NCBI RefSeq assembly: GCF_050920415.1
Contig: NZ_CP169309.1
Strand: one strand, 5' to 3'
Length of the DNA: 64,000 nt
Source of the DNA: Escherichia coli
GTDB taxonomy: Bacteria; Pseudomonadota; Gammaproteobacteria; Enterobacterales; Enterobacteriaceae
This document shows positions 22,907 through 59,002 of this stretch, in pieces (the first letter of the stretch is position 1; each line of letters starts with the position of its first letter). The position numbers and the translations under genes are program-made. A model generated the notes under the pieces. The model was given only the letters and a program-made list of their open reading frames with translations, was not told the origin of the DNA and did no database searches.

Positions 22907-23236
22907 TCACCGCCCATACTCATCTTCCATTCTCCGCTCTTCATCTTCTAGCTGCCGACGCTCCTGATCCAGCTGGCGCTGGCGATCGTCCAGCTGCTTG
23001 CGGCGATCTTCAAACTGGCGGCGGCGATCGTCATATTGTCTGCGCCGATCGTCGTTCACTTCACGCTGCCAGCCGTCGTCGCGCGAATCTTCATAGTCTC
23101 GCCCACGGTCAGGGTTATAAGCATCGTTAATCGCCTGCTGAATATTGCCAATGGTGTCGTCGATAATATCGGCCTGGGCCGGAACGGTGGACAGCGTGAG
23201 CAGGGTGAATAAAATAAATAGCGGAAAACGTTTCAT
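22907..23236 (-). CDS. yjdP: Small secreted protein YjdP with a highly charged D/E/R/Q repeat region
   Basis: 109 aa; signal peptide MKRFPLFILFTLLTLSTVPAQA followed by DDRRRQYDDRRRQFEDRRKQLDDRQRQLDQERRQLEDEERR. Confidence 0.75.
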   Translation of the reverse strand: MKRFPLFILFTLLTLSTVPAQADIIDDTIGNIQQAINDAYNPDRGRDYEDSRDDGWQREVNDDRRRQYDDRRRQFEDRRKQLDDRQRQLDQERRQLEDEERRMEDEYGR

Positions 23237-23304
23237 TAGCCAACCTCAAAAAGAAACTCTATCCACATTAGTCATTACTCATCCATGCAAGTAGTGGATG
23301 AATC

Positions 23305-23622
23305 TCAATTTTTCCGCTGCTCTATTGCCGTAATCGCCTCCACGCGTTGTTGATGACGACCGCCTTCGTACTGCGCGCCCAGCCACGCATCCACAATCAT
23401 TTTTGCCAGTTCGAGGCCAACCACTCGTGAACCAAAAGCCAGTGCAACTTCACTGGCGTAATGCGGATAATCAGTGCGCTCTGACGACCTGGTTTCTTTA
23501 TCAATCCCCTCACTCATTGACTATGAATAAAAGGCTGGCACAGCAACGCAGAATCCTGCGGTGCCAGCGACATGACCGCCCATTGCTCCGGTACGTTTTT
23601 TAATAAGAAACACCGGTTGCAT
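23305..23622 (-). pseudogene. rpiB: Remnant of ribose-5-phosphate isomerase B (internally deleted, 5' region degenerate)
   Basis: 70-aa ORF MSEGIDKETRSSERTDYPHYASEVALAFGSRVVGLELAKMIVDAWLGAQYEGGRHQQRVEAITAIEQRKN matches the RpiB N-proximal segment (WSSERTDYPHYASQVALA) and C-terminus as recalled, but lacks the central part with the catalytic Cys; an in-frame stop lies 2 codons upstream. Confidence 0.55.
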
Positions 23623-23874
23623 TGATTAATTGTGCTCAGTATTTGCCGAAGTACAATATATATAATAAATATATAAAACACCTCATATTATTTACAGAGA
23701 TAATGAATTCGCGTACTTTTCCCTCTTCAGCACAAATGCCTAATAAAATGGCTCGTTCCGCTCACACTTCCACTTATTAAAGTCGCAAATTCCCAATTAT
23801 GATAACGCCAGCTTTAAATGACGTATTTTGCATGGATTACATATTTACGACATAAATGATAAATGGAGATTTAT

Positions 23875-25860
23875 ATGAATAACTCTCGGTTATTCCGTTT
23901 GAGCAGGATTGTTATTGCGTTAACTGCCGCCAGCGGCATGATGGTAAATACCGCTCACGCAACAGATGAAGCGAAAGCCGCGACTCAATATACCCAGCAG
24001 GTTAATCAGCATTACGCAAAATCATTACCGTTTAGCGATCGTCAGGACTTTGACGATGCCCAGCGCGGATTTATCGCCCCGCTGCTGGATGAAGGTATTC
24101 TGCGCGATGCGAATGGCAAAGTTTACTACCGCGCGGATGATTACAAATTTGATATTAATGCCGCTGCGCCGGAAACCGTAAACCCCAGCCTGTGGCGTCA
24201 GTCGCAGATCAACGGCATTTCTGGCCTGTTCAAAGTCACCGATAAAATGTATCAGGTACGCGGCCAGGATATCTCTAACATTACATTCGTTGAGGGCGAG
24301 AAAGGCATTATTGTTATCGACCCACTGGTAACGCCGCCTGCCGCAAAAGCCGCACTTGACCTTTACTTCCAGCATCGTCCGCAAAAACCGATTGTTGCTG
24401 TGATTTACACCCACAGCCACGCCGACCATTATGGCGGTGTGAAAGGCATTATCTCTGAAGCGGATGTTAAATCTGGCAAAGTGCAAGTGATCGCTCCGGC
24501 AGGCTTTATGGACGAAGCCATCAGCGAAAACGTGCTGGCGGGTAACATCATGAGCCGCCGTGCGCTCTACTCTTACGGTCTGTTACTGCCGCATAACGCG
24601 CAAGGCAACGTGGGCAACGGCCTGGGCGTGACGCTGGCAACGGGCGACCCGAGCATTATTGCGCCAACCAAAACGATTGTCAGAACTGGCGAGAAGATGA
24701 TTATCGACGGCCTGGAATTTGACTTCCTGATGACTCCGGGTAGCGAAGCGCCAGCCGAAATGCACTTCTATATTCCGGCCCTGAAAGCCCTGTGTACCGC
24801 CGAAAACGCCACGCATACCCTGCACAACTTCTACACCCTGCGCGGCGCGAAAACCCGCGATACCAGCAAGTGGACAGAGTATCTGAACGAAACGCTGGAT
24901 ATGTGGGGTAACGACGCGGAAGTACTGTTTATGCCACACACCTGGCCGGTCTGGGGCAATAAGCATATCAATGATTATATTGGTAAATATCGCGATACTA
25001 TCAAATACATTCACGACCAGACCCTGCACCTGGCGAACCAGGGTTACACCATGAATGAAATTGGCGACATGATTAAGCTGCCACCTGCGCTTGCCAATAA
25101 CTGGGCCAGCCGCGGCTATTACGGTTCTGTCAGCCACAACGCCCGCGCGGTGTATAACTTCTATCTTGGCTATTACGACGGTAACCCGGCTAACCTGCAT
25201 CCGTATGGTCAGGTGGAGATGGGTAAACGTTACGTGCAAGCTCTGGGCGGTTCTGCCCGCGTTATTAACCTGGCGAAAGAAGCGAACAAGCAAGGTGATT
25301 ATCGCTGGTCGGCAGAACTGCTGAAACAGGTGATTGCCGCCAACCCGGGTGACCAGGTCGCGAAGAATCTGCAAGCGAATAACTTTGAACAGCTGGGCTA
25401 TCAGGCCGAGTCCGCCACCTGGCGCGGTTTCTACCTGACCGGCGCAAAAGAGCTGCGCGAAGGGGTGCATAAGTTCAGCCACGGCACCACCGGTTCTCCG
25501 GACACCATTCGCGGGATGTCGGTCGAAATGCTGTTCGACTTTATGGCCGTTCGCCTCGATAGCGCGAAAGCCGCAGGTAAGAATATCAGCCTGAACTTCA
25601 ATATGAGCAACGGCGATAACCTCAACCTGACGCTGAACGATAGCGTGCTTAACTACCGTAAAACGCTGCAACCTGAAGCCAACGCCTCTTTCTACATCAG
25701 CCGTGAAGATCTTCACGCCGTGCTGACCGGACAAGCCAAAATGGCGGATCTGGTAAAAGCGAAGAAAGCCAAAATTATTGGCAATGGCGCGAAACTGGAA
25801 GAAATTATTGCCTGTCTGGATAATTTCGATTTGTGGGTGAATATCGTAACCCCAAATTAA
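23875..25860 (+). CDS. yjcS: Putative alkyl/aryl sulfatase (metallo-beta-lactamase fold, SdsA1-like)
   Basis: 661 aa from [29 protein letters not shown] (signal peptide); HSHADH motif ([11 protein letters not shown]); RBS-supported second ATG chosen. Confidence 0.88.
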
Positions 25861-27394: not shown

Positions 27395-29445
27395 TGAGCG
27401 CGCTCAACTCCCTGCCATTACCGGTGGTCAGGCTGCTGGCGTTCTTTCATGAAGAGTTAAGCGAGCGGCGACCAGGCCGCGTGCCGCAGACTATGCAACT
27501 CTGGGTAGGCTGCTTGCTGGTGATTCTGATCTCGATGACTTTTGAGATCCCTTTTGTGGCGTTATCACTGGCAGTGCTGTTTTACGGTATTCAGTCGAAC
27601 GCGTTTTACACCAAATTTGTCGCGATCTTGTTTGTGGTCGCCACGATGCTGGAAATCGCCAGCCTGTTTTTGATCTACAAATGGTCATATGGCGAACCGT
27701 TGATCCGATTGATCATTGCCGGACCGATCCTGATGGGCTGTATGTTTTTGATGCGCACCCATCGGTTGGGGCTGGTTTTTTTCGCCGTCGCCATTGTCGC
27801 CATTTACGGGCAAACATTCCCCGCCATGCTCGACTATCCGGAAGTGGTCGTGCGCTTAACGCTGTGGTGTATCGTTGTCGGCCTCTACCCGACGTTATTG
27901 ATGACGTTAATCGGCGTGCTGTGGTTTCCCAGCCGCGCTATCACGCAGATGCATCAGGTGCTTAATGATCGGCTTGATGATGCCATTAGCCACCTGACGG
28001 ACAGCCTCGCACCGCTACCCGAAACGCGGATTGAAAGAGAGGCGCTGGCGCTGCAAAAACTCAATGTCTTTTGCCTCGCGGACGATGCCAACTGGCGAAC
28101 TCAGAGCGCATGGTGGCAAAGCTGCGTGGCAACGGTAACCTACATTTACTCGACGCTGAATCGCTACGATCCCACCTCTTTTGCTGATTCTCAGGCAATT
28201 ATTGAATTTCGGCAAAAATTAGCCTCAGAAATCAACAAACTGCAGCATGCCATTGCCGAAGGTCAGTGCTGGCAAAGCGACTGGCGGATCACTGAAAGTG
28301 AAGCGATGGCGGCACGGGAATGTAACCTGGAGAATATCTGCCAGACATTGTTGCAACTGGGTCAGATGGACCCGAATACACCGCCAACGCCCGCCGCCAA
28401 ACCGCCATCAATGGTCGCCGATGCTTTTACCAATCCAGACTATATGCGCTACGCGGTAAAAACGCTGCTCGCCTGTTTGATCTGTTACACCTTCTACAGC
28501 GGCGTGGACTGGGAAGGCATTCACACCTGTATGCTGACCTGCGTGATCGTCGCTAACCCCAATGTCGGTTCGTCGTACCAGAAGATGGTGTTGCGTTTTG
28601 GCGGGGCTTTTTGCGGCGCAATTCTGGCGCTGTTATTCACGCTACTGGTCATGCCCTGGCTGGACAATATTGTCGAATTGCTATTTGTGCTGGCACCGAT
28701 TTTCCTGTTGGGCGCATGGATTGCCACCAGCTCTGAACGCTCTTCTTATATCGGCACACAGATGGTGGTCACCTTCGCGCTCGCCACGCTCGAAAACGTT
28801 TTTGGCCCGGTGTACGACCTGGTGGAAATTCGCGATCGCGCCCTGGGTATCATCATTGGTACCGTGGTGTCCGCGGTGATTTACACCTTTGTCTGGCCTG
28901 AAAGTGAAGCGCGCACACTGCCGCAAAAACTGGCTGGCGCGCTGGGTATGTTGAGTAAAGTAATGCGGATCCCACGCCAGCAGGAAGTCACGGCTCTGCG
29001 CACTTATCTGCAAATTCGTATAGGTCTGCATGCGGCGTTTAATGCCTGTGAACAGATGTGCCAACGCGTGGCGCTGGAGCGTCAACTGGACAGCGAAGAA
29101 CGCGCTTTACTGATTGAACGTTCGCAAACGGTTATTCGTCAGGGCCGCGATATTCTTCACGCCTGGGATGCAACCTGGAACTCGGCGCAGGCGCTGGATA
29201 ACGCACTACAGCCGGACAGAGCAGGCCTGTTTGCCGACGCACTGGAGAAATACGCCGCCGGCCTGGCAAGCGCACTCAGCCGTTCTCCTCAAATTACACT
29301 TGAAGAGACACCCGCCTCGCAGGCCATCCTGCCGACCTTATTAAAACAGGAGCAATACGTCTGCCAGCTTTTTGCCCGCTTGCCAGACTGGACTGCCCCG
29401 GCATTAACGCCCGCCACGGAACAGGCACAAGGAGCCACGCAATGA
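27394..29445 (+). CDS. mdtO: Inner-membrane efflux component (FUSC/aromatic acid exporter family)
   Basis: 683 aa; multiple TM segments in both halves; start overlaps the mdtN stop by 1 nt. Confidence 0.88.
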   Translation: MSALNSLPLPVVRLLAFFHEELSERRPGRVPQTMQLWVGCLLVILISMTFEIPFVALSLAVLFYGIQSNAFYTKFVAILFVVATMLEIASLFLIYKWSYGEPLIRLIIAGPILMGCMFLMRTHRLGLVFFAVAIVAIYGQTFPAMLDYPEVVVRLTLWCIVVGLYPTLLMTLIGVLWFPSRAITQMHQVLNDRLDDAISHLTDSLAPLPETRIEREALALQKLNVFCLADDANWRTQSAWWQSCVATVTYIYSTLNRYDPTSFADSQAIIEFRQKLASEINKLQHAIAEGQCWQSDWRITESEAMAARECNLENICQTLLQLGQMDPNTPPTPAAKPPSMVADAFTNPDYMRYAVKTLLACLICYTFYSGVDWEGIHTCMLTCVIVANPNVGSSYQKMVLRFGGAFCGAILALLFTLLVMPWLDNIVELLFVLAPIFLLGAWIATSSERSSYIGTQMVVTFALATLENVFGPVYDLVEIRDRALGIIIGTVVSAVIYTFVWPESEARTLPQKLAGALGMLSKVMRIPRQQEVTALRTYLQIRIGLHAAFNACEQMCQRVALERQLDSEERALLIERSQTVIRQGRDILHAWDATWNSAQALDNALQPDRAGLFADALEKYAAGLASALSRSPQITLEETPASQAILPTLLKQEQYVCQLFARLPDWTAPALTPATEQAQGATQ

Positions 29446-30908
29446 TCAATCGTCAACTTTCACGCCTGCTGTTATGCAGCATTCTCGGCAGCACGACGCT
29501 GATTTCGGGCTGTGCCCTGGTACGTAAGGATTCTGCCCCGCATCAACAGCTCAAACCGGAACAAATCAAACTGGCCGATGATTTTCATCTCGCCAGCTCC
29601 GGCTGGCCACAGGCGCAGTGGTGGAAACAACTCAATGATCCGCAGTTGGATGCGCTGATCCAACGGACGCTAAGTGGTTCACATACCCTCGCCGAAGCGA
29701 AACTGCGGGAAGAAAAAGCGCAGTCGCAGGCGGATTTGTTAGATGCCGGTTCACAATTACAGGTGGCAGCGTTAGGGATGCTAAACCGCCAACGTGTCTC
29801 GACGAACGGCTTTTTAAGCCCTTATGCTATGGATGCGCCAGCACTGGGTATGGACGGGCCGTACTATACGGAAGCCACAGTCGGTTTGTTTGCCGGACTG
29901 GATCTTGATTTGTGGGGTGTGCATCGCTCAGCGGTTGCCGCCGCCATTGGCGCGCATAATGCAGCGCTGGCAGAAACCGCAGCAGTAGAGCTATCGCTGA
30001 CCACGGGCGTAGCGCAGCTTTATTACAGTATGCAGGCCAGCTATCAGATGCTCGATCTGTTAGAACAAACACGCGATGTGATTGATTACGCGGTGAAAGC
30101 GCACCAGAGTAAAGTGGCGCACGGTCTGGAAGCGCAAGTGCCTTTCCACGGCGCGCGGGCACAGATTCTGGCGGTCGATAAACAAATTGCTGCCGTTAAA
30201 GGGCAAATCACCGAAACGCGAGAATCTCTGCGTGCATTGATTGGCGCAGGAGCCAGCGATATGCCGGAGATCAAACCGGTGGCATTACCGCAAGTCCAGA
30301 CCGGCATTCCAGCGACACTCTCTTATGAGTTGCTCGCCAGACGCCCGGATCTGCAAGCCATGCGCTGGTATGTTCAGGCGTCATTAGATCAGGTGGATTC
30401 CGCGCGGGCGCTGTTCTATCCGAGCTTTGATATCAAAGCGTTTTTCGGCCTGGATTCTATCCACCTGGATACCTTATTCAAAAAAACCAGTCGCCAGTTC
30501 AACTTTATCCCAGGTCTGAAATTGCCGCTGTTTGACGGTGGACGGTTGAATGCCAATCTCGAAGGCACTCGCGCCGCCAGCAACATGATGATTGAACGTT
30601 ACAACCAGTCAGTGCTAAATGCGGTGCGCGACGTTGCAGTCAACGGCACGCGTCTGCAAACGCTCAACGACGAGCGGGAGATGCAGGCAGAACGCGTAGA
30701 AGCAACGCGCTTCACCCAGCGCGCTGCCGACGCCGCCTACCAACGCGGCTTAACCAGTCGCTTACAGGCCACCGAAGCCCAGTTGCCGGTGCTTGCCGAA
30801 GAGATGTCATTACTGATGCTGGACAGCCGCCGGGTGATCCAAAGCATTCAGTTGATGAAATCGCTGGGTGGCGGGTATCAGGCGGCTCCCGTCGTCGAGA
30901 AAAAATAA
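29442..30908 (+). CDS. mdtP: Outer-membrane efflux lipoprotein (OprM/NodT-like)
   Basis: 488 aa; lipoprotein signal (LISGCAL); overlaps the mdtO stop (ATGA). Confidence 0.88.
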   Translation: MINRQLSRLLLCSILGSTTLISGCALVRKDSAPHQQLKPEQIKLADDFHLASSGWPQAQWWKQLNDPQLDALIQRTLSGSHTLAEAKLREEKAQSQADLLDAGSQLQVAALGMLNRQRVSTNGFLSPYAMDAPALGMDGPYYTEATVGLFAGLDLDLWGVHRSAVAAAIGAHNAALAETAAVELSLTTGVAQLYYSMQASYQMLDLLEQTRDVIDYAVKAHQSKVAHGLEAQVPFHGARAQILAVDKQIAAVKGQITETRESLRALIGAGASDMPEIKPVALPQVQTGIPATLSYELLARRPDLQAMRWYVQASLDQVDSARALFYPSFDIKAFFGLDSIHLDTLFKKTSRQFNFIPGLKLPLFDGGRLNANLEGTRAASNMMIERYNQSVLNAVRDVAVNGTRLQTLNDEREMQAERVEATRFTQRAADAAYQRGLTSRLQATEAQLPVLAEEMSLLMLDSRRVIQSIQLMKSLGGGYQAAPVVEKK

Positions 30909-30919
30909 AATGTCAGCCG

Positions 30920-30975
30920 CGTGATGGCTGTCACGCGGTATTTCGTTTCGTCACGTCAAAACTGACGACAGCCTG
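30920..30975. promoter_or_regulatory. Candidate FhlA upstream activating region for fdhF
   Basis: Cluster of gtcacg / cgtcacgtc / ctgacgac / cgtcag repeats about 100 bp upstream of the sigma54 promoter; placement by analogy with the known fdhF UAS. Confidence 0.4.
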
Positions 30976-31037
30976 TTTTTCGTCAGAGTTTTGAATAAAT
31001 AGTGCCCGTAATATCAGGGAATGCCCCCAAATAAAAT

Positions 31038-31054
31038 GTGGCATAAAAGATGCA
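31038..31054 (+). promoter_or_regulatory. Sigma54 (-24/-12) promoter of fdhF
   Basis: tGGcataaaagatGCa: GG and GC spaced exactly as in the TGGCAC-N5-TTGCA consensus, about 50 bp upstream of the fdhF ATG. Confidence 0.65.
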
Positions 31055-31105
31055 TACTGTAGTCGAGAGCGCGTATGCGTGATTTGATTAACTGGAGCGA
31101 GACCG

Positions 31106-33253
31106 ATGAAAAAAGTCGTCACGGTTTGCCCCTATTGCGCATCAGGTTGCAAAATCAACCTGGTCGTCGATAACGGCAAAATCGTCCGGGCGGAGGCAGC
31201 GCAGGGGAAAACCAACCAGGGTACCCTGTGTCTGAAGGGTTATTATGGCTGGGACTTCATTAACGATACCCAGATCCTGACCCCGCGCCTGAAAACCCCC
31301 ATGATCCGTCGCCAGCGTGGCGGCAAACTCGAACCTGTTTCCTGGGATGAGGCACTGAATTACGTTGCCGAGCGCCTGAGCGCCATCAAAGAGAAGTACG
31401 GTCCGGATGCCATCCAGACGACCGGCTCCTCGCGTGGTACGGGTAACGAAACCAACTATGTAATGCAAAAATTTGCGCGCGCCGTTATTGGTACCAATAA
31501 CGTTGACTGCTGCGCTCGTGTCTGACACGGCCCATCGGTTGCAGGTCTGCACCAATCGGTCGGTAATGGCGCAATGAGCAATGCTATTAACGAAATTGAT
31601 AATACCGATTTAGTGTTCGTTTTCGGGTACAACCCGGCGGATTCCCACCCTATCGTGGCGAATCACGTAATTAACGCTAAACGTAACGGGGCGAAAATTA
31701 TCGTCTGCGATCCGCGCAAAATTGAAACCGCGCGCATTGCTGACATGCACATTGCACTGAAAAACGGCTCGAATATCGCGCTGTTGAATGCGATGGGCCA
31801 TGTCATTATTGAAGAAAATCTGTACGACAAAGCGTTCGTCGCTTCCCGTACAGAAGGCTTTGAAGAGTATCGTAAAATCGTTGAAGGCTACACGCCGGAG
31901 TCGGTTGAAGATATCACCGGCGTTAGCGCCAGTGAGATTCGTCAGGCAGCGCGGATGTATGCCCAGGCGGAAAGCGCAGCCATTCTGTGGGGCATGGGTG
32001 TTACCCAGTTCTATCAGGGCGTGGAAACCGTACGTTCTCTGACCAGCCTCGCGATGCTGACCGGTAACCTCGGTAAGCCGCATGCGGGGGTAAACCCAGT
32101 TCGTGGTCAAAACAACGTGCAGGGGGCCTGCGATATGGGCGCGCTGCCAGATACTTACCCTGGCTACCAGTACGTGAAAGATCCGGCTAACCGCGAGAAA
32201 TTCGCCAAAGCCTGGGGCGTAGAGAGCCTGCCTGCACATACCGGTTATCGCATCAGCGAGCTACCGCATCGCGCAGCGCATGGCGAAGTGCGCGCCGCGT
32301 ACATTATGGGCGAGGATCCGCTGCAAACGGATGCGGAACTGTCGGCAGTACGTAAAGCTTTTGAAGATCTGGAACTGGTCATCGTTCAGGACATCTTTAT
32401 GACCAAAACCGCGTCGGCGGCGGATGTCATTTTACCGTCAACGTCGTGGGGCGAGCATGAAGGCGTGTTTACTGCGGCTGACCGTGGCTTCCAGCGTTTC
32501 TTCAAAGCAGTTGAACCGAAATGGGATCTGAAAACGGACTGGCAGATTATCAGTGAAATCGCCACCCGTATGGGTTATCCGATGCACTACAACAACACCC
32601 AGGAGATCTGGGATGAGTTGCGTCATCTGTGCCCGGATTTCTACGGTGCGACTTACGAGAAAATGGGCGAACTGGGCTTCATTCAGTGGCCTTGCCGCGA
32701 TACTTCAGATGCCGATCAGGGGACTTCTTATCTGTTTAAAGAGAAGTTTGATACTCCGAACGGTCTGGCGCAGTTCTTCACCTGCGACTGGGTAGCGCCA
32801 ATCGACAAACTCACCGACGAGTATCCGATGGTACTGTCAACGGTGCGTGAAGTCGGTCACTACTCTTGCCGTTCGATGACCGGTAACTGTGCGGCACTGG
32901 CGGCGCTGGCTGATGAACCAGGCTACGCACAAATCAATACCGAAGACGCCAAACGTCTGGGTATTGAAGATGAGGCATTGGTTTGGGTGCACTCGCGTAA
33001 AGGCAAAATTATCACCCGTGCGCAGGTCAGCGATCGTCCGAACAAAGGGGCGATTTACATGACCTACCAGTGGTGGATTGGTGCCTGTAACGAGCTGGTT
33101 ACCGAAAACTTAAGCCCGATTACGAAAACGCCGGAATACAAATACTGCGCCGTGCGCGTCGAGCCGATCGCCGATCAGCGCGCCGCCGAGCAGTACGTGA
33201 TTGACGAGTACAACAAGTTGAAAACTCGCCTGCGCGAAGCGGCACTGGCGTAA
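31106..33253 (+). CDS. fdhF: Formate dehydrogenase H (selenocysteine-containing molybdoenzyme); in-frame TGA at 31523..31525 decoded as Sec
   Basis: Track ORFs 31106..31525 and 31574..33253 are in the same frame, separated only by one TGA (codon 140); N-terminal Cys cluster CPYCASGCKINLVV; 715 aa total. Confidence 0.93.
31523..31570 (+). other. SECIS stem-loop directing Sec insertion at the fdhF UGA
   Basis: tgacacggcccatcggttgcaggtctgcaccaatcggtcggtaatggc immediately 3' of the UGA, matching the fdhF SECIS as recalled. Confidence 0.85.
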
Positions 33254-33346: not shown

Positions 33347-34036
33347 ATGAAAAAAATTATCGCATTGATGTTGTTTTTGACATTCTTTGCCCATGCGAAC
33401 GGCTCCGAGCCTGGCAGTCAGTATCTCAAGGCTGCAGAGGCTGGAGACCGACGCGCACAATATTTTCTTGCCGACAGCTGGTTTAGCTCCGGCGATTTGA
33501 GCAAAGCCGAATATTGGGCACAGAAAGCCGCCGACAGCGGTGATGCTGATGCCTGCGCGCTGTTAGCGCAGATCAAAATCACCAATCCGGTCAGTCTGGA
33601 CTATCCACAAGCAAAAGTTCTTGCAGAGAAAGCGGCGCAAGCGGGCAGTAAAGAAGGTGAAGTAACGCTGGCGCATATTCTGGTAAATACGCAAGCGGGT
33701 AAACCGGATTATCCAAAGGCGATTTCGCTGTTAGAAAACGCCTCTGAAGATCTGGAGAACGACTCCGCCGTCGATGCTCAGATGCTGCTTGGTTTGATTT
33801 ACGCTAACGGCGTGGGCATTAAGGCCGACGATGAGAAGGCAACCTGGTATTTCAAACGCAGCTCTGCGATTTCACGAACCGGTTATTCCGAGTACTGGGC
33901 GGGAATGATGTTCTTAAATGGTGAAGAAGGTTTTATCGAGAAGAACAAACAGAAGGCGCTGCACTGGCTGAACCTGAGCTGTATGGAAGGGTTTGATACC
34001 GGGTGTGAAGAGTTTGAAAAATTAACTAACGGTTAA
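33347..34036 (+). CDS. yjcO: Sel1-repeat (TPR-like) periplasmic protein
   Basis: 229 aa; signal peptide MKKIIALMLFLTFFAHA; repeated A-x-YWAQKAADSGD / LAQI / KAAQAGS motifs typical of Sel1 repeats. Confidence 0.82.
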   Translation: MKKIIALMLFLTFFAHANGSEPGSQYLKAAEAGDRRAQYFLADSWFSSGDLSKAEYWAQKAADSGDADACALLAQIKITNPVSLDYPQAKVLAEKAAQAGSKEGEVTLAHILVNTQAGKPDYPKAISLLENASEDLENDSAVDAQMLLGLIYANGVGIKADDEKATWYFKRSSAISRTGYSEYWAGMMFLNGEEGFIEKNKQKALHWLNLSCMEGFDTGCEEFEKLTNG

Positions 34037-34037
34037 T

Positions 34038-34222
34038 GTAGGCCTGATAAGGCGCGCCAAGCGTCGCATCAGGCATTGATGTCGGATGCGGCGTAAACGC
34101 CTTATCCGACCTACAAAATCACCCTAAATCAAGCTATTGCGCAGTCTGGCGTAGGCCTGATAAGACGCGGCAAGCGTCGCATCAGGCATCCACACATTGC
34201 CGGGTGTATGTCCCCGGCAATC
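34038..34222. repeat. REP/BIME cluster
   Basis: Several gcctgataaggcgc...gcgtcgcatcaggc and gtcggatgcggcgtaaacgccttatccgacctac units between yjcO and gltP. Confidence 0.75.
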
Positions 34223-56179: not shown

Positions 56180-59002
56180 ATGGATAAGATCGAAGTTCGG
56201 GGCGCCCGCACCCATAATCTCAAAAACATCAACCTCGTTATCCCCCGCGACAAGCTCATTGTCGTGACCGGGCTTTCGGGTTCTGGCAAATCCTCGCTCG
56301 CTTTCGACACCTTATATGCCGAAGGGCAGCGCCGTTACGTTGAATCCCTTTCCGCCTACGCGCGGCAGTTTCTGTCACTGATGGAAAAGCCGGACGTCGA
56401 CCATATTGAGGGGCTTTCTCCTGCCATCTCAATTGAGCAGAAATCGACGTCTCACAACCCGCGTTCTACGGTGGGGACAATCACCGAAATCCACGACTAT
56501 TTGCGTTTGTTGTTCGCCCGCGTCGGCGAGCCGCGCTGTCCGGACCACGACGTCCCGCTGGCGGCGCAAACCGTCAGCCAGATGGTGGATAACGTGCTGT
56601 CGCAGCCGGAAGGTAAACGCCTGATGCTGCTCGCGCCAATCATTAAAGAGCGCAAAGGCGAACACACCAAAACGCTGGAAAATCTGGCAAGCCAGGGTTA
56701 CATCCGTGCTCGTATTGATGGCGAAGTCTGCGATCTTTCCGATCCGCCGAAACTGGAACTGCAAAAGAAACATACCATTGAAGTGGTGGTTGATCGCTTC
56801 AAGGTGCGTGACGATCTCACCCAACGTCTGGCAGAGTCGTTTGAAACCGCGCTGGAGCTTTCCGGTGGTACCGCGGTAGTTGCCGATATGGACGATCCAA
56901 AAGCGGAAGAGCTGCTATTTTCCGCCAACTTCGCTTGTCCAATTTGCGGCTACAGTATGCGTGAACTGGAACCACGCCTGTTTTCGTTTAACAACCCGGC
57001 GGGGGCCTGCCCGACCTGTGACGGCCTTGGCGTACAGCAATATTTCGATCCTGATCGCGTGATCCAAAACCCGGAACTGTCGCTGGCTGGCGGTGCGATC
57101 CGTGGCTGGGATCGCCGCAACTTCTATTATTTCCAGATGCTGAAATCGCTGGCAGATCACTATAAGTTCGACGTCGAAGCGCCGTGGGGCAGCCTGAGCG
57201 CGAACGTGCATAAAGTGGTGTTGTACGGTTCTGGCAAAGAAAACATTGAATTCAAATACATGAACGATCGTGGCGATACCTCCATTCGTCGTCATCCGTT
57301 CGAAGGCGTGCTGCACAATATGGAGCGCCGTTATAAAGAGACGGAATCCAGTGCGGTACGCGAAGAATTAGCCAAGTTTATCAGCAATCGCCCGTGCGCC
57401 AGCTGCGAAGGAACGCGTCTGCGTCGGGAAGCGCGCCATGTGTATGTCGAGAATACGCCGCTGCCTGCTATCTCCGACATGAGCATCGGTCATGCGATGG
57501 AATTCTTCAACAATCTCAAACTCGCAGGTCAACGAGCGAAGATTGCGGAAAAAATTCTTAAGGAGATTGGCGATCGCCTGAAATTCCTCGTTAACGTCGG
57601 CCTGAATTACCTGACACTTTCCCGCTCGGCAGAAACGCTTTCTGGCGGTGAAGCCCAGCGTATCCGTCTGGCGAGCCAGATTGGTGCGGGCCTGGTTGGC
57701 GTTATGTACGTGCTCGATGAGCCGTCTATCGGCCTGCACCAGCGCGATAACGAGCGCCTGCTGGGTACGCTTATCCATCTGCGCGATCTCGGTAATACCG
57801 TGATTGTGGTGGAGCACGACGAAGACGCGATTCGCGCCGCTGACCATGTGATCGACATTGGCCCGGGCGCAGGTGTACACGGCGGTGAAGTAGTCGCGGA
57901 AGGTCCCCTGGAAGCGATTATGGCGGTGCCTGAGTCGTTAACCGGGCAGTACATGAGCGGCAAACGCAAGATTGAAGTGCCGAAGAAACGCGTTCCGGCG
58001 AATCCGGAAAAAGTGCTGAAGCTGACAGGCGCACGTGGTAATAACCTGAAAGACGTGACGCTGACGCTGCCAGTCGGTCTGTTTACCTGCATCACAGGGG
58101 TTTCAGGTTCCGGTAAATCGACGCTGATTAACGACACACTGTTCCCGATTGCCCAACGCCAGTTGAATGGTGCGACCATCGCCGAACCGGCACCTTATCG
58201 CGATATTCAGGGGCTGGAGCATTTCGATAAAGTGATCGATATCGACCAAAGCCCAATTGGTCGTACTCCGCGTTCTAACCCGGCGACCTATACCGGCGTG
58301 TTTACGCCTGTGCGCGAACTGTTTGCGGGCGTACCGGAATCCCGTGCGCGCGGTTATACACCAGGACGATTCAGCTTTAACGTTCGCGGCGGACGCTGCG
58401 AAGCCTGTCAGGGCGATGGCGTGATCAAAGTGGAGATGCACTTCCTACCGGACATTTACGTACCGTGCGACCAGTGCAAAGGTAAACGCTATAACCGTGA
58501 AACGCTGGAGATTAAGTACAAAGGCAAAACCATCCACGAAGTGCTGGATATGACCATCGAAGAGGCGCGTGAGTTCTTTGATGCGGTACCAGCTCTGGCA
58601 CGTAAGCTGCAAACATTGATGGACGTTGGCCTGACGTATATTCGTCTGGGTCAGTCCGCAACCACGCTTTCTGGTGGTGAAGCCCAGCGCGTGAAGCTGG
58701 CGCGTGAGTTGTCAAAACGCGGCACCGGGCAGACGCTGTATATTCTCGACGAGCCGACCACCGGTCTGCACTTCGCCGATATTCAGCAACTGCTCGACGT
58801 ACTGCATAAACTGCGCGATCAGGGCAATACCATCGTGGTGATTGAGCACAATCTCGACGTGATCAAAACCGCTGACTGGATTGTCGACCTGGGGCCGGAA
58901 GGCGGCAGTGGCGGCGGCGAGATCCTCGTCTCCGGTACACCAGAAACCGTCGCGGAGTGCGAAGCATCACACACGGCACGCTTCCTTAAGCCGATGCTGT
59001 AA
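56180..59002 (+). CDS. uvrA: Excinuclease ABC subunit A
   Basis: 940 aa; two ABC ATPase modules ([18 protein letters not shown]) and zinc-finger Cys pairs. Confidence 0.97.

Follow-up and report, generated by a model that had tools for sequence, protein, structure and literature searches.

The fdhF promoter region and selenocysteine codon of an Escherichia coli strain correspond to the known K-12 arrangement

Formate dehydrogenase H (FDH-H) is the molybdopterin- and [4Fe-4S]-containing selenoprotein of formate hydrogenlyase. The closest described system is fdhF of E. coli K-12, whose UGA codon at position 140 serves as an experimental model recoding site (PMC4513850). For this UGA and its SECIS element, which are identical in sequence to those described here, a selenium-dependent recoding of 30-40% as well as SelB binding and 75Se incorporation are documented (PMC4513850). 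The 17-mer forming the -24/-12 element of the present locus is likewise the ChIP-seq sigma-54 site OS41 of K-12, where the predicted start lies 41 nt from fdhF (PMC4591121), and in-vitro binding of RpoN holoenzyme has been observed for the spacer between fdhF and mdtP (PMC8743547). Salmonella fdhF carries TGGCATAAAACATGCATA and depends on sigma-54 (PMC3844500). The regions upstream of fdhF and hyc are described as targets of FhlA binding (PMC11291172), and dependence on both fhlA and rpoN is documented for the identical K-12 fdhF sequence.

The window, by which we mean the whole 64-kb stretch of DNA that was analysed, shows three mismatches over 64 kb to the E. coli strain MFDS1022581 and is E. 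coli chromosome. For annotation we used a near-identical genome, NZ_CP169399.1, which is three bases off the window over 64 kb. Its RefSeq annotation lists fdhF as one intact CDS of 715 residues, flanked by mdtP and yjcO. Translation of 31106-33253 yields 716 codons, with stops solely at codons 140 and 716. With selenocysteine written as cysteine in the query, residues 1-715 align over the full length to residues 1-715 of 1AA6 in the PDB (E = 0), the full-length matches 1AA6, 1FDO, 2IV2 and 7Z0T are titled 'formate dehydrogenase H', and the TIGR01591 profile is matched at 1095.3 bits against a cutoff of 666.25. On these matches the gene is fdhF, encoding FDH-H. The product has Cys8, Cys11, Cys15, Cys42, Lys44, Sec140, His141 and Arg333, all present; apart from Lys44, these are the catalytic and cluster residues reported for the 1FDO structure. 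Two minus-strand ORFs (30931-31122 and 31142-31555) run antisense to conserved regulatory and coding sequence, and RefSeq has no gene there. The features of the locus are compiled in Table 1.

Table 1. Features of the fdhF locus (window coordinates) and selenocysteine genes (coordinates in NZ_CP169399.1).
Feature	Position	Strand	Remarks
Terminator-like hairpin GCCGCGTGA-TGGC-TGTCACGCGGT then ATTTCGTTTC	30916..30939	+	Terminator scan and inverted repeat
Upstream activating (UAS) core TCGTCACGTCAAAACTGACGA	30948..30968	.	Putative FhlA binding site
14-bp palindrome CGTCA-AAAC-TGACG	30954-30967		About -111 to -98 from predicted start
Half-site TTCGTCA	30979..30985	+	32 nt (~three helical turns) after the copy at 30947
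Sigma-54 (-24/-12) promoter GTGGCATAAAAGATGCA	31038..31054	+	GG 31040-41, GC 31052-53, 10 nt between
Shine-Dalgarno GGAG	31093..31096	+	9 nt before ATG, within conserved TTAACTGGAGC block
fdhF coding sequence	31106..33253	+	715 codons and TAA stop
SECIS RNA (Rfam SECIS_2, RF01988)	31518..31572	+	87.1 bits, E 1.7e-18
In-frame TGA, codon 140	31523..31525	+	Sole internal stop; probably read as selenocysteine
SECIS apical 17-nt stem-loop GGUUGCAGGUCUGCACC	31537-31553	+	Starts 11 nt past UGA; GGUC loop
tRNA-Sec (selC)	71855-71949		NZ_CP169399.1 annotation
selA	158583-159974		NZ_CP169399.1 annotation
selB	159971-161815		NZ_CP169399.1 annotation
selD	2305872-2306915		NZ_CP169399.1 annotation

The original prediction described two ORFs of the same frame split by a single TGA, and translation verifies both coordinates and frame: the ORF 31106..31525, consisting of 139 codons and the TGA, shares its frame with the downstream ORF that ends at 33253. 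The hairpin following the TGA, cited there as a 41-nt string spanning 31523-31563, had been taken for the fdhF SECIS, which the RF01988 score and the identity to K-12 bear out. The covariance match comprises model positions 1-55 of 55, with the UGA at model positions 6-8 (gathering threshold 70 bits), and the element aligns to that of K-12 fdhF with 100% identity. Its predicted fold has the expected shape. The folding energy is unremarkable against shuffled sequences (z = -1.23; 25 of 200 shuffles fold equally well), and the significance of the element thus derives from the covariance-model score, the K-12 identity and the conservation across genera. Across 108 loci, the third positions of Gly142, Ser144 and Val145, which the search pattern leaves free, are invariant, and the synonymous entropy amounts to 0.35-0.57 bits in the SECIS codons versus 0.9-1.3 bits in flanking codons. 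Among 38 distinct homologues, 93.8% of the SECIS pair cells form pairs, with the Rfam pairs 8-47 and 17-39 often unpaired. In this sample, for which the selection pattern fixed the apex, only single, wobble-compatible substitutions occur and compensatory double ones are absent; a shuffle control is uninformative with nearly all columns invariant.

The TGA could instead be a genuine stop or arise from a sequencing error, making fdhF a pseudogene from which only a 139-residue fragment is produced. Such a reading draws on the mechanical ORF call, which breaks the gene at 31525, and on a hairpin stability that is not significant by itself; however, the sequence at and around the TGA matches K-12 exactly, the CDS is annotated as intact in the near-identical RefSeq genome, and a SECIS of 87 bits occurs together with the genes of the selenocysteine machinery. 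The whole gene differs from K-12 at 49 nucleotides, all of them 3' of the TGA and 48 of them synonymous, the exception being K289E. This is unlike a dead frame, and the frame downstream of the TGA is therefore translated. Judged by this synonymous pattern, purifying selection acts downstream of the UGA, and we reject the nonsense or error explanation, to which we assign a next to negligible probability. Considering the literature on the identical K-12 sequence, UGA140 is probably decoded as selenocysteine.

The machinery for such decoding is encoded outside the window, in which there are no sel genes. In NZ_CP169399.1, the annotation gives selA, selB, selC and selD as intact genes, none with a pseudogene flag. 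The same genome annotates hycA-I and hypA-E as intact, and fhlA, adjoining hypE, as a 'formate hydrogenlyase transcriptional activator' of 692 residues. Reading frame, SECIS and sel genes taken together agree with the earlier view that the strain has an intact selenocysteine-dependent FDH-H.

The differences from K-12 are unevenly distributed along the gene, as 41 of the 49 crowd into nt 741-1443 of fdhF (window 31846-32548). This patch is rare and diverges from K-12 by ~5.6%, almost purely at synonymous positions; of the remaining complete E. coli genomes, none comes closer to it than 3.3%. Both flanks are more than 99% K-12-like. We postulate that fdhF may be a mosaic: recombination would have brought in the patch from an Escherichia lineage not yet sampled, and strict purifying selection would have maintained it; in our judgement, the chances for and against this origin are evenly balanced.

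Upstream of the gene, an exactly spaced GG-N10-GC motif at 31038..31054 had been noted before. The spacing is verified, and the 17-mer equals the published sigma-54 site. Transcription is predicted to start at ~31065, 41 nt ahead of the ATG, and the last 25 nt ahead of the ATG are conserved across loci. A search of the window with the sigma-54 consensus, allowing two mismatches, returns 22 matches versus 28.9 expected, showing no excess over chance. Since a bare consensus match is weightless, the GG-N10-GC motif could be a coincidence, with transcription of fdhF driven by a sigma-70 promoter or reading through from mdtNOP. Several observations speak against this: a promoter scan finds no sigma-70-like promoter in 30700-31300, the ChIP-seq site is the identical 17-mer, and a terminator-like hairpin lies between mdtP and fdhF. 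In addition, the element is kept in most fdhF loci across genera. Of 107 enterobacterial loci, most have the pattern TGGCA-N7-TGC[ACT] 51-87 nt before the start codon of fdhF, where ~0.003 occurrences would be expected by chance per 260-nt upstream region (estimated from information content), and the -24/-12 element is invariant in 26 genus representatives, which were picked from promoter-bearing loci. Based on the promoter scan and the conservation, we reject a sigma-70 promoter or mdtP read-through as very improbable. The -24/-12 element is accordingly best regarded as the probable sigma-54 promoter of fdhF, with its occupancy taken from the identical K-12 sequence.

Further upstream, GTCACG is present at 30930 and 30950 and TTTCGTCA at 30946 and 30978, together with the inverted pairs TCGTCA/TGACGA and CTGACGA/TCGTCAG. 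The CGTCA-N4-TGACG palindrome occurs a single time in the 64-kb window. It forms a conserved block across 26 genera and, written as CGTCA-N4-TGWCG, is present in 78 of the 84 fdhF loci with a sigma-54 promoter, with an offset of exactly 85 nt from the downstream TGGCA in 58 of them; the 0.98 Mb of collected loci contain it only 82 times. The half-site TTCGTCA, also a conserved block among genera, is found in 72 of the 84 loci and exactly at -60 from TGGCA in 55. The palindrome is the best intergenic match of the published 14-nt FhlA matrix and is in register with it, scoring 8.4 bits where 129 matches in the window reach at least 8 bits. Over the window, the site thus ranks far down, and the matrix alone cannot pick it out. 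The regulatory regions of hyc-hyp, hycA-hycB and hydN in NZ_CP169399.1 carry the same type of motif. The putative coordinates of the upstream sites come from this comparison, taken together with what is reported by Birkmann and Böck in 1989 and by Leonhartsberger et al. in 2000. Motif similarity and the literature point to FhlA as the probable ligand of the repeats, and the conserved palindrome and the architecture of published sites favour the original suggestion that the gtcacg/cgtcag repeats are consistent with an FhlA UAS.

The repeats may serve another purpose than, or a purpose in addition to, that of an FhlA enhancer, either as the terminator of mdtP or as the target of another regulator such as the FhlA paralogue HyfR. 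The stop codon of mdtP lies at 30908, and the hairpin directly after it is T-tailed; the 3' arm of this hairpin contains GTCAC(G) at 30930-30935, the repeat farthest upstream. This copy may have a role besides that of an activator site. The match to the FhlA matrix is modest, as given above, and HyfR and FhlA are placed in one enhancer-binding family (PMC8743547). The offset between palindrome and sigma-54 promoter is nevertheless conserved regardless of the upstream gene, which fits an enhancer and not a terminator, and a GTCAC placed ~106-111 nt ahead of the -24 element is also present in many genera that do not have the mdtP hairpin. The motif type is also found at the FhlA-regulated hyc/hyp and hydN promoters, and FhlA binding upstream of fdhF and hyc is described in the literature (PMC11291172). 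Moreover, the roles of terminator and half-site are not exclusive: the hairpin can end mdtP transcription while GTCAC acts as an outlying half-site. We therefore consider a function other than that of an FhlA enhancer unlikely, with a small residual probability. As a minor possibility, an uncharacterised co-regulator may act at a conserved block (31007-31036) that separates the upstream site from the -24 element.

As a whole, this DNA almost certainly comprises the control sequences and the 5' portion of E. coli fdhF and works in the way known from K-12. In the proposed sequence of events, sigma-54 RNA polymerase would wait as a closed complex on the -24/-12 element. Formate-activated FhlA, an enhancer-binding protein, would bind the GTCA/TGAC repeats ~100 nt upstream, namely the palindrome at 30954-30967 and its flanking half-sites, and would spend ATP on opening the promoter, such that transcription begins near 31065. 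Upon meeting UGA140, the ribosome would encounter SelB-GTP-Sec-tRNA(Sec) tethered by the hairpin at 31518-31572 (apex 31537-31553). Selenocysteine would then be inserted in place of termination, giving rise to a 715-residue enzyme whose molybdenum site holds Sec140. We infer FhlA binding, formate induction, SelB binding and selenocysteine insertion from the literature on the identical K-12 sequence.

The whole arrangement, comprising UGA recoding and a formate-responsive sigma-54 promoter, is already known and is intact here; it holds no novelty, in line with the original prediction, and belongs to the well-studied K-12 system. The locus is useful mainly as a control that frame and strand of the window were correctly read. 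The strain, a close relative of an Stx2g-positive food isolate, keeps a complete selenocysteine-dependent FDH-H together with the formate-responsive control region, and production of formate hydrogenlyase as in K-12 is therefore expected. Across ~25 enterobacterial genera, the comparative footprint of this control region, consisting of the -24/-12 element, the palindrome at its 85-nt offset and TTCGTCA, agrees with the known regulation of fdhF and adds nothing beyond it.

Compared to K-12 fdhF (b4079), the locus has the same order, mdtP-fdhF-yjcO-gltP, and a product of the same length, 715 residues. Identity is complete over the conserved blocks upstream, over the -24/-12 element and the 5' UTR, and over gene nt 1-545, which include the SECIS. 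Between 30880 and 31620 there are five differences (30884, 30886, 30915, 31024 and 31030), all of them outside these regions; those at 30915, 31024 and 31030 are intergenic substitutions. At the protein level, the two enzymes have in common Sec140, His141, Arg333 and the four [4Fe-4S] cysteines; 7Z0T shows the K-12 enzyme within the formate hydrogenlyase complex. The recoding element shows no difference from the type sequence of Rfam RF01988, the fdhF-type, SelB-bound family. Within the FhlA (formate) regulon, the sigma-54 promoters of hycA, hypA, hydN and hyfA share with fdhF the TGGCA-N7-TGC core and clustered YGWCR-N4-YGWCR sites upstream. At fdhF, CGTCA-N4-TGACG forms a perfect palindrome located ~100 nt from the start; for hyp, the site is found in the hycA-hycB interval, at a much greater distance from its promoter.

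Translation of the formate dehydrogenase H (FDH-H) gene fdhF yields 716 codons and meets stops at codons 140 and 716 only, and the mechanical ORF list breaks the gene in two at the TGA at 31523-31525, just as the original prediction described two same-frame ORFs parted by a single TGA. The hairpin quoted in that prediction spans 31523-31563. All 55 positions of the Rfam SECIS_2 model (RF01988) align to 31518-31572, with a score of 87.1 bits (E 1.7e-18; gathering score 70 bits); the related SECIS_3 model stays below its threshold. The RNA is predicted to fold into the interrupted hairpin expected for this element, whose apex GGUUGCAGGUCUGCACC (31537-31553) begins 11 nt past the UGA; the free energy of the fold is unexceptional (z = -1.23). 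Aligned to K-12, region 30880-31620 is gapless and differs at five positions (30884, 30886, 30915, 31024 and 31030); the conserved upstream blocks, promoter, 5' UTR, codons 1-139 and SECIS are all free of differences. The UGA-selenocysteine (Sec)/SECIS arrangement is thus borne out, at a site identical to that of K-12. Kotini et al. employed exactly UGA140 and its SECIS (codons 141-153) as a recoding model, for which selenium-dependent read-through of 30-40% was measured (PMC4513850).

All 49 nucleotide differences between this fdhF and that of K-12 (b4079) lie 3' of the UGA. K289E is the one amino-acid change among them, the other 48 being synonymous. This is strong purifying selection on the frame beyond the UGA and evidence that ribosomes read on past that codon. 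With Sec replaced by Cys in the query, residues 1-715 align with the PDB entries 1AA6, 1FDI, 1FDO, 2IV2 and 7Z0T ('formate dehydrogenase H'), and TIGR01591 is matched at 1095 bits (cutoff 666). Cys8, Cys11, Cys15, Cys42, Lys44, His141 and Arg333 are all found.

Forty-one of the 49 differences, namely 40 synonymous changes and K289E, fall within gene nucleotides 741-1443 (31846-32548), a patch of about 5.6% divergence; on either side, the remaining thirds of the gene share 99.1-99.7% identity with K-12. Among 5,425 complete E. coli genomes, no other matches the patch at more than 96.7%, and the K-12 version of the segment finds a match of 95% or more in all but two. E. albertii, E. whittamii and the other Escherichia representatives fetched are no closer (93-95.6%). 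From these comparisons, the patch looks like a rare product of recombination, probably acquired from a lineage not yet sampled and held under purifying selection. It is the only unusual feature, lies outside the original prediction and is of minor interest.

A scan of species-representative genomes with a pattern combining UGA-His-Gly-Pro-Ser-Val and the SECIS apex returned at least 120 loci from more than 30 enterobacterial genera. Among the matches listed, the third-codon positions of Gly142, Ser144 and Val145, left free in the pattern, do not vary in the 108 loci with a full 5' part, and mean synonymous entropy is 0.35-0.57 bits in the SECIS versus 0.9-1.3 bits in flanking codons. The 38 distinct SECIS among these matches form standard pairs in 93.8% of pair cells, compared to 21-49% with partners slid; Rfam pairs 8-47 and 17-39 are frequently unpaired, and there are no compensatory double changes, only C-G to U-G changes. 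Given the frozen synonymous sites and the lack of compensatory changes, we infer that the RNA is backed by conservation rather than covariation, with the caveat that the search pattern biased the sample. A second fdhF-like gene is present in several genera (Pluralibacter, Klebsiella oxytoca, Raoultella, Enterobacter and others; L016, L046, L050, L073, L093, L101 and other fetched loci); it shares the SECIS apex, likewise has its UGA at codon 140, and differs at the N-terminus (MK.VTTVCPYCA.GCK.QL). No TGGCA-N7-TGCA was found upstream of these paralogues, and their regulation presumably differs from that of fdhF. One locus (L124) lies on a contig labelled Chryseobacterium sp. 18061. Its fdhF is of the Enterobacteriaceae type, promoter and upstream palindrome included; the contig is probably a contaminant or its assembly mislabelled.

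The sequence GTGGCATAAAAGATGCA at 31038-31054 has a GG-to-GC gap of exactly 10 nt, as had been claimed for the -24/-12 element. The bare consensus match carries no weight, because 22 matches with up to two mismatches were found in the 64-kb window against 28.9 expected; the best of them, TGGCACGTAAGCTGCA with one mismatch, lies inside uvrA (58596-58611), a gene that the main text of the ChIP-seq study does not name (PMC4591121). The identical 17-mer in K-12 is the sigma-54 ChIP-seq site OS41, whose predicted start lies 19 nt beyond the centre of the motif and leaves 41 nt to the fdhF ATG (PMC4591121), a geometry that would place the start at about 31065 in the window. Furthermore, the fdhF-mdtP spacer was bound by RpoN holoenzyme in genomic SELEX (PMC8743547), and Salmonella fdhF carries TGGCATAAAACATGCATA and is sigma-54 dependent (PMC3844500). 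Most of 107 loci among the matches listed have TGGCA-N7-TGC[ACT] 51-87 nt 5' of the ATG, with a chance expectation, estimated from the pattern's information content, of about 0.003 per locus. No sigma-70-like promoter was found within 30700-31300.

The upstream cluster of gtcacg/cgtcag repeats, previously read as consistent with an FhlA upstream activating sequence, is real. There are two copies of GTCACG (30930 and 30950) and two of TTTCGTCA (30946 and 30978, spacing 32 nt), and TCGTCA/TGACGA and CTGACGA/TCGTCAG form inverted repeats. When loci were aligned on the -24 element (84 loci among the matches listed), CGTCA-N4-TG[AT]CG was present in 78, exactly 85 nt upstream in 58, and TTCGTCA at -60 in 55. 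Within the window this motif has a single occurrence, the palindrome at 30954-30967, and the 0.98 Mb of fetched loci contain only 82. When each of 26 genera among the matches listed was represented by one locus, the conserved blocks were 30948-30958, 30963-30968, 30979-30985, 31039-47 and 31051-55. Birkmann and Böck reportedly placed the fdhF upstream activating sequence at about -100 to -120 in 1989, with which the palindrome at -111 to -98 agrees. The palindrome is also the best in-register match to an FhlA matrix compiled from 13 sites (PMC7658346), at just 8.4 bits, a score too low for the matrix to single out the site by itself. According to PMC11291172, FhlA binds upstream of both fdhF and hyc. 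In NZ_CP169399.1 the same motif, YGWCR-N4-YGWCR, is found in the spacer between hypA and hycA and in front of hydN, with two further copies between hycA and hycB.

The most upstream GTCACG lies within the 3' arm of a terminator-like hairpin with a T-rich tail (30916-30939), directly 3' of the mdtP stop. Since GTCAC is kept at about the same offset in genera without this hairpin (among the matches listed), it may be both an outlying half-site and part of the mdtP terminator. A block at 31007-31036, CGTAATATCAGG...AT(A/G)CCC(A/C)CAA(A/T)TAAAA, lies between the -24 element and the upstream activating sequence. Its conservation spans Escherichia, Salmonella, Citrobacter, Klebsiella, Enterobacter, Kluyvera and relatives and does not reach more distant genera; the K-12 differences at 31024 and 31030 fall inside it.

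The annotation places no selenocysteine-machinery genes within the window. The window is E. coli chromosome and differs from NZ_CP169399.1 (strain MFDS1022581, food isolate, Korea; 4741286-4805285) at 3 of 64,000 bases; in this near-identical genome selA, selB, selC and selD, the genes named for checking in the original prediction, are all annotated intact. Its RefSeq symbol for fhlA is 'flhA'. Also present in that genome, outside the window, are an Stx2g prophage and an eilA/ETT2-like island for type III secretion, the latter about 4 kb from selC (fetched loci: prophage, L128 45359-46600; island, L125 19054-27372; fhlA, L129 21638-23716). Two REP-type elements between yjcO and gltP (34041-34111 and 34154-34219) match Rfam naRNA4 (RF02564), one at 73.7 bits, above the gathering score.

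Genes of the fdhF region and of the selenocysteine and formate machinery
Feature	Coordinates	Sequence	Strand	Remark
mdtP	29442-30908	window		RefSeq annotation of NZ_CP169399.1; one side of fdhF region
fdhF	31106-33253	window	+	RefSeq annotation of NZ_CP169399.1
yjcO	33347-34036	window		RefSeq annotation of NZ_CP169399.1; other flank of fdhF region
tRNA-Sec	71855-71949	NZ_CP169399.1		annotated intact
selA	158583-159974	NZ_CP169399.1		annotated intact
selB	159971-161815	NZ_CP169399.1		annotated intact
fhlA	1096638-1098716	NZ_CP169399.1		annotated intact, with hypA-E, hycA-I, hydN-hypF
selD	2305872-2306915	NZ_CP169399.1		annotated intact

All that lies between yjdP and yjcS (22907-25860) is an rpiB pseudogene of 318 nt (23305-23622), which carries an internal stop; missing there is the alsRBACEK operon, which adjoins yjcS in K-12. 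The fdhF neighbourhood itself is the same in K-12, deposited in the opposite orientation. Apart from compensatory pairing in the SECIS and a telling score on the FhlA matrix, the testable defining features of an fdhF SECIS, of FDH-H, of a sigma-54 promoter and of an upstream site of the enhancer type were all found; SelB binding, FhlA binding and 75Se incorporation are documented for the identical K-12 sequence and would apply here by analogy. As a whole, the recoding site and promoter were correctly recognized and are already known; we agree that they are not novel.
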